Assembly: GCA_964364265.1 (NCBI GenBank)
Contig: CAYILA010000001.1
Coordinates: 6,808-70,807 of the forward strand
Reading direction: 5' to 3'
DNA from: an uncultured Candidatus Saccharibacteria bacterium
GTDB taxonomy: Bacteria; Patescibacteriota; UBA1384; XYA2-FULL-43-10; 1-14-0-10-43-13
DNA: 64,000 nt
Shown here: one piece after another, positions 8,685-50,570 of the stretch
Layout: the number at the start of each line of letters is the position of its first letter
Position numbering within the stretch: the first letter of the stretch is position 1
Notes under the pieces: model-generated
The model's database searches: none
Told to the model about the DNA's origin: nothing
Seen by the model: the letters and a program-made list of their open reading frames with translations, nothing else
Position numbers and translations under genes: made by a program

Positions 8685-9427
8685 TGAAAGCATTAATTTT
8701 CTCCGATGTTCATGCCAGTAATTCTACTCTAGCGTTTTTAAAAAAAGAAATTTCTAAATACGATCTTTTGATATTTTCCGGCGACCTTACCAATATGGGG
8801 GAGCCGGTCTCTTTTGCTGATGATTTTATTTTAATTATTAAAAATGCCGGAATACCGCTCTTTTGGGTGCCGGGCAACAACGATTTTGGCGCTACCTACG
8901 ATATTTTGAATCAGGAAATACCTTCGCTGGAGGGTAGAGTGGAGGAATTTAAGGTCTCTCGTCCCGATAAATCGGGATCTCGAGACGCCGCACCAACGGT
9001 GCGGCGGTTTACCGGTGTCGGGGGATCCCCCGCTTCTTGGGCTGGGGCGTACGGCGGGAATAAATCGGTGGCACAGGAAAAAATCGCCGGCACTATTTTT
9101 ATCTCTCATTATCCGCCGCCAAGAATTTTCAATTACCTGATGCCGGGAAAATCCGAAGGACTCTCCCCCATCTTTGAAAATTCGAATATCGAATATCGAA
9201 TATCAAAACAAATTCAAAATTCGAAATTAGAAATTCGAAATTCGTCATTGTCAATTACGAAGAAATTGACTTATTCGCCTATTGTCCATATTTGCGGGCA
9301 TATCCACTATCAACAAGGCATCGCCTATCTCGGCGAGACTAAAATAATTAAACTTGCCTCCGCAGAAACCGGGCATTATGGTATACTTGATCTAGATAAT
9401 TTAGAAATAGATTTCCGGAGATTCTAG
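8681..9427 (+). CDS. metallophosphoesterase (calcineurin-like) with two in-frame low-complexity/palindromic inserts
   Basis: The MPE motifs are ordered SDVHAS (DxH), SGDLTNMG (GDxx), VPGNNDFG (GNHD-like), ISHYPP (H) and ICGHIHYQQ (GHxH). The spacers between motifs III-IV and IV-V are about 30 aa longer than usual. Confidence 0.65.
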   Translation: MMKALIFSDVHASNSTLAFLKKEISKYDLLIFSGDLTNMGEPVSFADDFILIIKNAGIPLFWVPGNNDFGATYDILNQEIPSLEGRVEEFKVSRPDKSGSRDAAPTVRRFTGVGGSPASWAGAYGGNKSVAQEKIAGTIFISHYPPPRIFNYLMPGKSEGLSPIFENSNIEYRISKQIQNSKLEIRNSSLSITKKLTYSPIVHICGHIHYQQGIAYLGETKIIKLASAETGHYGILDLDNLEIDFRRF

Positions 9428-9771
9428 TTGTCATTCCGACCGAAGTGGAGGAATCTTTGAAATTGTATTATGTTTATATAATGACCAGTCCAAGTAGAGT
9501 TTTATACATTGGAATGACTGACAATTTGGAGCGTCGAGTTTCTGAACACAAACAAGGATTACTCAAAGGTTTTACCAGTAAGTATAAATGCAAGATTTTA
9601 GTGTATTTCGAAAGTTCAAACGATGTCAGTGCGGTTTTGGAAAGAGAAAAACAATTGAAACGATGGAACAGGCAAAAAAAGATTGATTTAATCGAGAAAA
9701 TGAATCCCGAATGGAAGGATCTTGGGGAAGAATTATCATAAGATCCCTCCGCGTTGGTCGGGATGACAGTG
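9427..9771 (+). mobile_element. GIY-YIG gene bounded by ~27-bp imperfect inverted repeats (TGTCATyCCGACC...GGAGGrATC)
   Basis: The left arm is ttgtcattccgaccgaagtggaggaatc (9428-9455). The right arm gatccctccgcgttggtcgggatgacag (9744-9771) is its imperfect reverse complement. A related cargo-less copy sits at 18688-18760. Confidence 0.6.
9445..9741 (+). CDS. GIY-YIG nuclease family protein (YhbQ/UPF0213-like)
   Basis: LYYVYIMTS...RVLYIGMTDNLERRVSEH and a KQLKRW segment match the GIY-YIG catalytic-domain pattern (GIY ... YIG ... R ... E ... N). Confidence 0.8.
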   Translation: MEESLKLYYVYIMTSPSRVLYIGMTDNLERRVSEHKQGLLKGFTSKYKCKILVYFESSNDVSAVLEREKQLKRWNRQKKIDLIEKMNPEWKDLGEELS

Positions 9772-9828
9772 GTAAATGTCGGGATAACAAAAAGAAAAGC
9801 CTGGGACGACAATTAGGAAAGGTTAATT

Positions 9829-10016
9829 ATGAGAACAATAATATTGGCTTCAACATCGCCGCGGAGAATTGCCGGGGACACTTCTTCAAAAAGCATCTTG
9901 ATTTCGCGATAAAGTATGCATTAAAATATTCCGGTATCGATCCGGTTTTGCAAGAGTTAGCCGAGGGATGTATTAAAGAGATAAAAGCAGATTATAAAGA
10001 ATTCATAAAGGAGTAA
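9829..10016 (+). pseudogene. maf: remnant of maf (nucleoside triphosphate pyrophosphatase/septum formation protein), frameshifted N-terminal fragment
   Basis: After an AGGAAAGG RBS, ATG encodes MRTIILASTSPRR, the canonical Maf N-terminus (xxILASxSPRR), then stops after 27 codons. The overlapping frame continues with a Maf-like ...DPVLQELAEG.IKEIKA... segment. The reported 101-aa ORF 9711..10016 lies in that second frame. Confidence 0.4.
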
Positions 10017-18687: not shown

Positions 18688-18760
18688 TGTCATCCCGAGT
18701 GGTGAAGTTCTGGAATCGAGGGATCCCTCCACTTTCATAATCGCATCGGTCGGGATGACA
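18688..18760. mobile_element. cargo-less copy of the inverted-repeat pair that bounds the GIY-YIG gene at 9427-9771 (empty site or MITE-like element)
   Basis: tgtcatcccga...tcgggatgaca forms 11-bp perfect terminal inverted repeats. The interior carries ggaatcgagggatccctcc, matching the inner ends (ggaggaatc / gatccctcc) of the occupied element. Confidence 0.55.
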
Positions 18761-50239: not shown

Positions 50240-50314
50240 TGGTAGCCTCAAAGGGAGTCGAACCCTTCTTACCACATTGAAAGCGTGGTGTCCTAACCGA
50301 TAGACGATGAGGCC
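50240..50314 (-). tRNA. tRNA-Glu (anticodon TTC)
   Basis: The reverse complement ggcctca tc gtc tatcggttagga cac c acgct TTTCaat gtggt ... ttcgact ... tgaggc t acca folds as a cloverleaf. The anticodon loop is cTTTCaa. Confidence 0.75.
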
Positions 50315-50406
50315 ATAACTAAACTAATTGAAGGGATTGGCCCTTCGACTTGCTCAGGGTCATTCGACTCGCTTCACAAACCATGGTTTACCATGAGCGA
50401 GCGAAG

Positions 50407-50481
50407 CGAGTCGAATGGTGGACTGCCTGGGACTCGAACCCAGAACCAATGGCTTAAGAGGCCACTGCTCTACCATTGAGC
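50407..50481 (-). tRNA. tRNA-Lys (anticodon CTT)
   Basis: A near-identical paralogue of the tRNA-Lys(TTT) at 17835, with the anticodon loop cCTCTTaa (34-36 = CTT). Confidence 0.85.
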
Positions 50482-50570
50482 TAGCAATCCCTACCTCGAT
50501 AAAATAGCATAAACTGCCCGTTTAGACAAGGTTACAGGCACAATAATATCGATTAACCTATAAATCAAAA

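Follow-up and report, generated by a model that had tools for sequence, protein, structure and literature searches.

A GIY-YIG nuclease gene between inverted repeats

The subject of this study is a small GIY-YIG nuclease gene and the two inverted repeats, here called arms, that enclose it in a 64-kb stretch of contig CAYILA010000001.1 from an uncultured Candidatus Saccharibacteria bacterium; the whole stretch is referred to below as the window. The features of the locus are given in the following list, with scores from R1, a covariance model of repetitive extragenic palindromes (REPs) that is described in the next section and was run over the window.

9429 to 9457, plus strand: left arm, TGTCATTCCGACCGAAGTGGAGGAATCTT, a TGTC-tagged REP hairpin (R1, 25.2 bits; E = 5.6e-4)
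9429 to 9432, plus strand: TGTC tag of the left arm, followed by the stem (9433 to 9440 paired with 9447 to 9454), the loop CGAAGT, and the tail CTT
9457 to 9741, plus strand: GIY-YIG nuclease gene with a TTG start, 94 amino acids (match to PF01541)
9740 to 9768, minus strand: right arm, the same REP hairpin inverted, tag facing outward (R1, 23.2 bits; E = 1.8e-3)

The left stem consists of five Watson-Crick pairs, a tandem G.A/A.G mismatch, and one C-G pair. The right arm reads TGTCATCCCGACCAACGCGGAGGGATCTT on the minus strand and AAGATCCCTCCGCGTTGGTCGGGATGACA on the plus strand, and its TGTC tag occupies positions 9768 to 9765 of the minus strand. Aligned in register, the two arms are identical at 24 of 29 positions, and the five differences come from a compensatory change of one stem pair (position 3, T-A to C-G) and from three bases of the loop. 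An earlier note on this DNA had described the open reading frame (ORF) as bounded by inverted repeats, the right one an imperfect reverse complement of the left, and this description holds: the best 28-mer complementarity between the two 80-nucleotide (nt) flanks is 23, above the mean of 14.8 and the maximum of 19 found in 300 shuffles.

The unit is tightly packed. The TAG stop codon of the upstream metallophosphoesterase gene (9425 to 9427) is followed by a single T and then by the left arm, which ends on the likely TTG start codon at 9457; the right arm begins within the TAA stop codon of the nuclease gene (9739 to 9741). Measured from GTC to GAC, the unit spans 338 nt and is the shortest among 52 units measured. 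The length of 98 amino acids previously given for the protein applies if translation begins at the alternative GTG codon at 9445, inside the left arm. The TTG codon at 9457 is the likelier start, and the resulting 94-residue protein is the one called in near-identical contigs (P0002 and P0003) and agrees with the N termini of 30 homologs. The left arm overlaps the start region of the gene whichever of the two codons is used. The sequence GGAGG at 9447 to 9451 forms part of the 3' half of the left stem, lies 5 nt before the TTG codon, and is likely to be the Shine-Dalgarno sequence of the gene.

Around the unit, scans for promoters and terminators detected no signal beyond chance, and no T-run follows the right arm. 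An Rfam search of the whole window at gathering thresholds returned only tRNAs, and an E-value search of 9350 to 9850 returned no match; no described RNA family covers the arms.

Relationship of the arms to CGTC/TGTC-tagged REPs

REPs are among the most abundant noncoding repeats of bacteria, and the discovery of the REP-associated tyrosine transposases (RAYTs) turned those of the GTAG class into a tractable replicator-host system. In the other large class, that of the CGTC-tagged REPs, the dRS3 sites of Neisseria are used by filamentous prophages, and Rickettsia palindromic elements (RPEs) insert into genes. The CGTC-tagged REPs, defined by Di Nocera, De Gregorio, and Rocco (BMC Genomics 14:522, 2013; PMC3733652), carry an unpaired terminal tag that reads CGTC, often TGTC (or CCTC), followed by a stem of 8 to 9 bp whose first pairs are A-T and then T-A, a loop of 4 to 5 nt, and a 3-nt tail near CCA. 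They are mostly arranged as head-to-head dimers with the tags outside, they take in Neisseria dRS3 and Rickettsia RPE-4 and RPE-6, and they were reported without a dedicated enzyme (PMC3733652).

We built R1 exclusively from 48 short arms of other organisms, modeling the tag, an 8-bp stem, the loop, and the tail, and ran it over the window with filters off. It replaced two improvised hairpin searches, based on GTCA plus a stem, that had proved too unspecific, with 65 matches against 44 expected in one case and 44 against 28 in the other. Exactly four matches with an E value below 0.01 were obtained in the window, namely, the two arms of the gene unit and the two arms of a dimer without a gene; the next best match reached 14.7 bits (E = 0.21). 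The second pair comprises the following features.

18688 to 18727, plus strand: left arm of the cargo-less head-to-head REP dimer (R1, 23.3 bits; E = 1.6e-3)
18720 to 18760, minus strand: right arm of the cargo-less dimer (R1, 22.0 bits; E = 3.5e-3)

R1 was built without the window and nevertheless finds its arms, which speaks independently against a chance palindrome. The possibility of a chance inverted-repeat match, considered in the earlier note, falls with the same result, and the cargo-less pair that had been proposed at 18688 to 18760 is borne out, both of its arms being recognized. The arms are neither a private palindrome nor a set of unique terminal repeats and belong to a widespread class.

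The cargo-less dimer is located between a DnaJ-like gene and a gene for a membrane protein. Its arms overlap in the central GGGATCCC, both carry the TGTC tag, their loops measure 15 to 17 nt, and the tail is CCC; folded as single-stranded DNA, the dimer reaches -15.6 kcal/mol (z = -2.6). Its right arm closely resembles the left arm of the gene unit, except for a 12-nt insertion in the loop. Both pairs in the window are arranged head to head with the tags outside. All four arms begin their stems with the pairs A-T and T-A, and their stems span 8 positions, two of which form the tandem G.A/A.G mismatch.

These properties recur in other organisms. At almost all of 80 loci that encode homologs of the nuclease, the upstream flank reads (T/C)GTCAT...hairpin...GGAATC(CA), and its reverse complement stands downstream. 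When 110 distinct arms were aligned to R1, to which the alignment is itself fitted, the first two stem pairs were invariant (A-T and T-A), six of the eight stem pairs varied on both sides, and 87% of cells were paired, compared with 70% in shuffles and 16 to 54% when the partner column was slid. G-U pairs were nearly absent (4 of 856 cells), and about half of the arms had the tandem G.A/A.G mismatch at stem positions 6 and 7. Many of the homolog arms are textbook examples of types CGTC-1 to CGTC-4, such as TGTCATTCCCGCGAAAGCGGGAATCCA and CGTCATCCTCGGGCTTGACCCGAGGATCCA. On this comparison of sequences, each arm is a hairpin in its own right and a member of the already named CGTC/TGTC-tagged class. 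The 64-kb window has two dimers, and homolog loci show as many as 16 copies within 2.6 kb.

The two arms of a unit may also differ from each other. In the heterodimeric units L020, L047, and L063 (loci are cited by number where they have to be told apart), the arms differ in stem and loop, each being a perfect hairpin. Since such heterodimers exist, the conserved feature is an inverted arrangement of tag, hairpin, and tail rather than complementarity between the left and right arms.

A possible link to a described transcript was noted separately. REP dimers and arms at 1796 to 1884 and 171 to 280 of locus L085 match the Rfam family RF02748 (FtrB, Francisella small RNA B) below threshold, scoring 34 and 32 bits where the gathering score is 66, and a Francisella genome (L031) has a GIY-YIG unit with CGTC-type arms. 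FtrB may be the transcript of a CGTC-type repeat.

Association of the gene with REPs across phyla

We fetched 80 homolog loci whose encoded proteins show 50 to 64% identity. They span Chloroflexota, Acidobacteriota, several classes of proteobacteria, Bacteroidota, Ignavibacteriota, the candidate phyla radiation (CPR), Cyanobacteria, Firmicutes, Planctomycetota, Omnitrophota, and other groups. Arm pairs were sought at 79 loci (78 homolog loci and the window) with a tag-anchored inverted-repeat test, in which the threshold was the best score of any shuffle; this test replaced a loose Smith-Waterman comparison of the flanks, whose alignments over-extended. The order left arm, gene, right arm, with the tags outside, scored above every shuffle at 52 of the 79 loci, which represent Chloroflexota, Acidobacteriota, Proteobacteria, Bacteroidota, CPR, Cyanobacteria, Firmicutes, Planctomycetota, and further groups.

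The density of R1 matches falls off steeply with distance from the gene, from 5.5 per kb within 150 nt to 1.5 per kb at 150 to 300 nt and 0.1 to 0.2 per kb at 0.6 to 3 kb, so that REPs are about 40-fold denser beside the gene than at 0.6 to 3 kb (80 loci); at least one match lies within 150 nt of the gene at 57 of the 80 loci. It might be supposed that a generic intergenic palindrome happens to stand beside an unrelated small gene, given that REPs are common in intergenic DNA and that the window has only two dimers. The enrichment just described, the arm pairs that exceed every shuffle at 52 loci, and the recognition of the window arms by a model built from other organisms together effectively refute this coincidence, to which we assign almost no weight. 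The earlier note had allowed that the arms might turn out to be a generic REP-like element; they are indeed REPs, but they are concentrated specifically around this gene family.

The arms also follow the gene in their divergence. The left and right arms of one unit are 83% identical, whereas an arm shares 67% identity with the arms of other loci, and the more alike the arms of two loci, the more alike their proteins tend to be (Mantel r = 0.30; none of 2,000 permutations as high). A metagenome-assembled genome of Chloroflexota harbors two paralogs (L010 and L023; 67% identical), each with its own matched arm pair, and the two pairs differ by compensatory changes in the stem.

Many homologs in the databases carry N-terminal extensions of 40 to 75 residues, or C-terminal tails such as SLEMT, that correspond to the translated flanking REP arms. 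These extensions are probably gene-calling artifacts arising from stop-free repeats. The module accounts for a common annotation artifact, in which REP-encoded peptide tails are fused to GIY-YIG ORFs.

A minimal nuclease related to Slx1 and UPF0213

The window protein is a single stand-alone domain of 94 residues. It matches Pfam family PF01541 over residues 8 to 80 with 57.3 bits (cutoff, 22.6; E = 2e-15), and GIY-YIG and related families were the only ones matched. We collected 292 homologs, including 94-residue versions that are 98 to 99% identical, and a profile search at E <= 1e-10 retrieved 10,271 cluster representatives (clustering at 50% identity). Among 30 diverse homologs, Y17, G19, R27, H31, and E64 are invariant and Y4 and Y7 nearly so; catalytic roles can be assigned to these conserved core residues by analogy with other GIY-YIG enzymes. 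N83, in the motif NP.W.DL, is likewise invariant among the 30; a catalytic Asn toward the C terminus is typical of the UvrC/homing endonuclease lineage and absent from the Slx1/UPF0213 lineage.

An AlphaFold2 model (mean predicted local distance difference test score, 93) has the GIY-YIG fold, a three-stranded sheet flanked by helices. Foldseek placed the UPF0213 protein 1zg2 and the nuclease domain of Slx1 (6seh, 4xlg, and 7cq3) above the N-terminal domain of UvrC (1yd6); identity to 6seh is 32 to 34%, with a root mean square deviation of 2.5 A. In a profile search of the PDB, the UPF0213 proteins BH0048 and EF2693 were closest (1zg2, E = 3e-7; 1ywl, E = 1e-5). Judged from these similarities, the protein appears to belong to the prokaryotic stand-alone branch of the Slx1 family delineated by Dunin-Horkawicz et al. 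(2006; PMC1564403). Slx1 cuts branched and stem-loop DNA according to structure (PMC6902002), and recognition of a hairpin or cruciform by the GIY-YIG protein is therefore a natural hypothesis.

Slx1 and the UPF0213 proteins (Escherichia coli YhbQ, Bacillus subtilis YazA, PDB 1zg2 and 1ywl) share the fold and the catalytic core and are the best matches in sequence and structure, but the identity is only 23 to 34%, and the subfamily of the window has C-terminal helices of its own (REKQLK.W.R.KK..LI...NP.W.DL). Unlike Slx1, the subfamily has neither a RING/PHD domain nor an Slx4 partner. We know of no link between UPF0213 proteins and repeats.

Searches of the PADLOC library of defense systems and the PHROGs library of phage proteins gave only weak, subsignificant matches, and no match was found among 50,697 phage records. 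On these grounds, an antiphage role and a phage homing endonuclease were both set aside.

Occurrence in known REP hosts and gain or loss of the unit

A tblastn search of plasmid and chromid records detected the protein in Rhizobium, Sinorhizobium meliloti, Shinella, Sphingobium, Novosphingobium, Azospirillum lipoferum 4B, Neisseria gonorrhoeae, and others. There is overlap with the organisms that Di Nocera et al. list as hosts of CGTC-REPs (PMC3733652). Caulobacter crescentus, CGTC positive in the same survey (PMC3733652), has three small COG2827 endonuclease genes (PMC1839093). In S. meliloti, the order left arm, gene, right arm is found between gltA and lpxB. In N. gonorrhoeae, the gene lies within a dRS3 cluster with 16 R1 matches in 2.6 kb. 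The gonococcal copy (L090; NZ_CP119140.1, 1882287 to 1882541) has no feature in the gene table of its record, a 2.17-Mb replicon that is labeled a plasmid and is presumably the chromosome.

The clearest case of gain or loss comes from Azospirillum. In A. lipoferum 4B, the GIY-YIG gene stands between sufB and sufC with a head-to-head dimer on either side. The sufB-sufC regions of A. ramasamyi, A. oryzae, and Azospirillum sp. B510 are 95 to 97% identical to it and lack the insert of about 530 nt. R1 found no REP in the empty sites of the two relatives scanned, A. ramasamyi and B510, and thus arms and gene were gained or lost together. Shinella sp. PSBB067 carries a separate unit of left arm, gene, and right arm in the same spacer. 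Elsewhere, this spacer holds other small genes, one for a DUF559 (Vsr-like endonuclease) protein in Sphingomonas parapaucimobilis and one for a heavy-metal-binding domain in Paracoccus ferrooxidans, and among the loci compared (including L087 and L108) small genes appear to have landed in it repeatedly.

The window is part of a metagenome-assembled genome of the Patescibacteria (CPR), and its CPR relatives present a comparable picture. Their orthologous loci were reached by protein search; scanning metagenomes with a motif back-translated from the upstream metallophosphoesterase gave no match. The order FtsH, MurJ, a protein of unknown function (DUF), metallophosphoesterase, a variable slot, and Nfo is kept, and the content of the slot changes. 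In L085, the slot holds an empty heterodimer, both arms of which match the occupied unit of the Parcubacteria locus L020, and a GIY-YIG gene with a right arm stands on the opposite side of the metallophosphoesterase gene. Other occupants of the region, small genes of types frequent in mobile elements, are a gene of the 23S_rRNA_IVP family between the metallophosphoesterase gene and nfo in L083 (4164 to 4517) and a LAGLIDADG_3 gene just downstream of nfo in L085 (3422 to 4174). The variety suggests that the region around the metallophosphoesterase and Nfo genes is a local insertion hotspot in CPR relatives.

Taken together, the comparisons support the view that, on an evolutionary timescale, the unit acts as a mobile module, in keeping with the earlier description of gene and inverted arms as one unit with cargo-less copies: one Azospirillum species has the unit and close relatives lack it, and its surroundings differ from taxon to taxon. 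Three explanations of such behavior, each different from the one that we prefer, have to be weighed here.

The unit could be a miniature cut-and-paste transposon whose terminal inverted repeats are the arms and whose transposase is the GIY-YIG protein. Inverted ends that precisely enclose a single gene, cargo-less copies reminiscent of miniature inverted-repeat transposable elements, and the presence/absence polymorphism would all fit. Target-site duplications should then be visible, and the 52 units showed no excess of 2- to 6-nt direct repeats over permuted flanks at any of three offsets; several units have an inverted repeat that continues a few bases past the tag. The arms of one unit may moreover differ in stem and loop, as in the three heterodimers, and some genes stand outside dimers. 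A hydrolytic nuclease of 94 residues would be incapable of strand transfer, and we know of no GIY-YIG enzyme that catalyzes it (PMC1564403). The tiny transposon envisaged in the earlier note is therefore quite improbable.

Alternatively, the gene could be a classical homing endonuclease gene whose product cuts an empty REP dimer by its sequence and which is copied in from an occupied dimer by double-strand-break repair, with the arms serving as homology and the REPs spreading by other means. Consistent with this, empty dimers share their arms with occupied ones (18688 to 18760 in the window; L085 versus L020), and the commonest position of the gene is precisely the spacer between head-to-head arms (the 52 loci above). 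However, the protein is a bare catalytic domain without a DNA-binding module, it reaches only 18.7 bits against a cutoff of 56 for the group I intron endonuclease family TIGR01453, and homologs are missing from the phage records searched. Arms of about 28 nt are very short as homology for recombination, and the layouts with a gene between two dimers or with tags facing inward are hard to fit. A homing gene inserted into a preexisting palindrome, as once proposed for the window, does not fit Azospirillum, where the two scanned empty sites have no REP and arms and gene travel together. We consider homing unlikely.

The long residence of the gene at one locus raises a further alternative. L082, a 900-nt contig, encodes a GIY-YIG protein with 92% identity, and its gene lies downstream of the same upstream gene. 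Between this copy and that of the window, the ratio of nonsynonymous to synonymous substitutions (dN/dS) is 0.04 at a dS of 1.2, which shows strong purifying selection and a functional gene. A domesticated, structure-specific host nuclease might remove or process hairpins or cruciforms at REP dimers and so protect replication, with the REPs mainly controlling its gene by way of mRNA stability or by masking the ribosome-binding site. Apart from the selection and the long residence, such a role agrees with the recurrence of the same context across samples, the relationship to Slx1, the GGAGG within the left stem, and an SOS box reported for one of the Caulobacter paralogs (PMC1839093). It leaves unexplained why the gene is consistently nested between repeats in unrelated phyla, why whole modules are inserted into conserved operons such as sufBCD, and why arms and proteins covary, and in most homologs the ribosome-binding site lies outside the hairpin. 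A host function of this kind is about as improbable, in our estimate, as homing. In moving rarely, staying long at one locus, and being under purifying selection, the gene is closer to RAYTs than to insertion sequences.

A probable REPtron-like module with a nuclease in the place of the RAYT

Our preferred explanation is that the window harbors a REPtron-like module, in which a minimal gene of the Slx1/UPF0213 type lies between inverted CGTC/TGTC-tagged REPs and its nuclease takes the place of the RAYT; we regard this as probable, though well short of certain. In its anatomy, the feature is a head-to-head REP dimer with a gene as its spacer, a very compact member of a widespread module. A broader proposition, that the GIY-YIG family is the long-missing dedicated enzyme of the CGTC/TGTC-tagged REPs (dRS3 and those of rhizobia, Azospirillum, and sphingomonads), has in our judgment about an even chance of being correct.

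REPtrons consist of a RAYT gene flanked by inverted GTAG-type REPs or by REPINs. The likeness lies in a single small nuclease gene between inverted hairpin repeats, in the existence of cargo-less doublets, in the absence of target-site duplications, and in a gene that is usually single copy, stably located, and under purifying selection. The differences lie in the tag, which is CGTC or TGTC here and GTAG there, and in the enzyme, a hydrolytic GIY-YIG fold as opposed to an HUH/Y1 transposase with a covalent intermediate. Because the enzymes are unrelated, the chemistry of any mobilization must differ from that of the REPtron. The unit is REPtron-like and yet outside the class, as it has no HUH Y1 transposase of the IS200/IS605 type.

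With the CGTC-tagged REPs, the module shares the (C/T)GTC tag, the A-T and T-A pairs at the foot of the stem, the short tail, the head-to-head dimers, and, in the class at large, the short loop, and the host ranges overlap (Azospirillum, Sinorhizobium, sphingomonads, Neisseria, and Bacteroidetes). It departs from them in the GIY-YIG gene among the repeats, in the tandem G.A mismatch of the window arms, and in the length of many homolog arms, which measure 40 to 70 nt in contrast to published stems of 8 to 9 bp. The GIY-YIG homing endonucleases I-TevI, Seg, and Mob have the same catalytic domain and are likewise encoded by small, selfish-looking genes in variable slots. Unlike them, the window protein has no DNA-binding domain of the NUMOD type and no phage or intron context, and hairpin repeats flank its gene and not those of the homing endonucleases.

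We propose that the nuclease would recognize the REP hairpin or cruciform through its invariant foot, (C/T)GTC|AT...AT|C, made up of the tag, the A-T and T-A pairs, and the tail, at moments when REP DNA is transiently single stranded or extruded as a cruciform. It would then nick at or near the junction of tag and stem, much as Slx1 acts on branched DNA; cleavage of the hairpin is inferred from this analogy. Inverted arms would provide one tag-first hairpin per strand, on the 5' side of the unit in that strand, and host repair, recombination, or replication might act on the nicks in such a way that dimers and gene are copied or maintained. Dimers without cargo, among them that at 18688 to 18760, would be nonautonomous partners. 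In the compact copy of the window, where GGAGG lies inside the left stem, the left hairpin would mask the ribosome-binding site in the mRNA and may keep expression low.

Several observations weigh against this explanation. No significant arm pair was found at 19 of the 79 loci, several of which are borderline heterodimers, and the tags face inward at 8 of the 79. Some genes lie between two complete dimers and not within one (L057, L061, and L041). The correlation of arms and proteins is modest, with a protein identity of 0.592 within an arm class and 0.566 between classes (P of about 2e-4). The arms of the gene unit in the window are weak as DNA hairpins (-3.4 and -4.0 kcal/mol, no better than shuffles), and their 6-nt loop and CTT tail contrast with the 4- to 5-nt loop and CCA tail of the published class; many homolog arms, for example TGTCATTCCCGCGAAAGCGGGAATCCA, do show the published loop and tail, and the window arms are looser, divergent variants of CGTC-tagged REPs. 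The gene has been kept at the window locus over a dS of about 1.2 without a sign of recent movement, and a search for recent transposition, in the form of identical proteins in multiple contexts, found none, the neighbors always being the same across samples. Finally, GIY-YIG enzymes hydrolyze DNA and cannot rejoin its ends, and by themselves they offer no complete mechanism of copying.

If the broader proposition is true, the family represents a second, independently evolved partnership of repeats with a nuclease, based on a hydrolytic Slx1-like enzyme instead of an HUH transposase; it would extend over a dozen or more phyla and over 10,000 protein clusters. If the association is functional, it provides a candidate enzyme for the CGTC-tagged REPs that is testable in culturable Azospirillum, Sinorhizobium, and Neisseria, a biological role for thousands of unannotated genes labeled "GIY-YIG nuclease family protein," and perhaps a hint of the role of the UPF0213 lineage. 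It would also mean that a protein of about 95 residues can act as a minimal hairpin-specific DNA nuclease. A search of the full-text literature, with most subscription journals outside its coverage, found no paper linking GIY-YIG proteins with REPs, and a prior description is possible.

Additional features around the unit and in the window

A degraded maf gene had been reported immediately downstream of the unit and read as a hint that the insertion disrupted local gene structure. Only the first 13 residues of a 27-codon ORF (ATG at 9829; MRTIILASTSPRR) resemble the N-terminal motif of Maf, the ORF has no Pfam match even at E <= 10, and the window contains no other Maf-like motif. Related genomes carry other genes in the slot, never maf, which leaves the disruption without a basis.

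Just beyond the right arm, a partial copy was found.

9777 to 9789, minus strand: orphan copy of the outer 12 nt of a right arm, GTCGGGATAACA (direct repeat D4, 92% identity; pattern match with 2 mismatches)

It sits 21 nt downstream of the true right arm and is probably the remnant of an older arm. A comparable orphan (agtcggaatgtta) lies directly past the stop codon of the metallophosphoesterase gene in L082 and may be a relic of an earlier arm. In the same contig (435 to 546), the metallophosphoesterase gene keeps its own 3' end, and roughly its final 45 nt are present once more, in a window-like version that abuts the left arm. This duplication could be the footprint of acquisition of the module together with flanking DNA, or else an assembly chimera.

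The metallophosphoesterase gene of the window contains, at 9170 to 9255, an in-frame low-complexity insert of short tandem units (ttcgaatatcgaatatcgaatatc...aaattcgaaattagaaattcgaaattcg). The insert makes the product about 40 residues longer than its relatives of about 205 residues, and it differs in sequence and length in L082.

Between the tRNA genes at 50243 to 50314 and 50419 to 50490 (minus strand), a strong hairpin was noted at 50335 to 50416 (stem of 14 bp; -25.3 kcal/mol as DNA; z = -6.9). It contains GAGCGAGCGAAGCGAGTCGAA, which is similar to the inner part of long-type REP arms. The portion at 50359 to 50416 was considered as a third REP copy and rejected, as the arm covariance model does not recognize it.

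The 27-codon ORF at 9829 is overlapped by a possible coding sequence of 101 residues (9711 to 10016), which begins within the nuclease gene, matches no family, and is called as a gene in the near-identical contigs.

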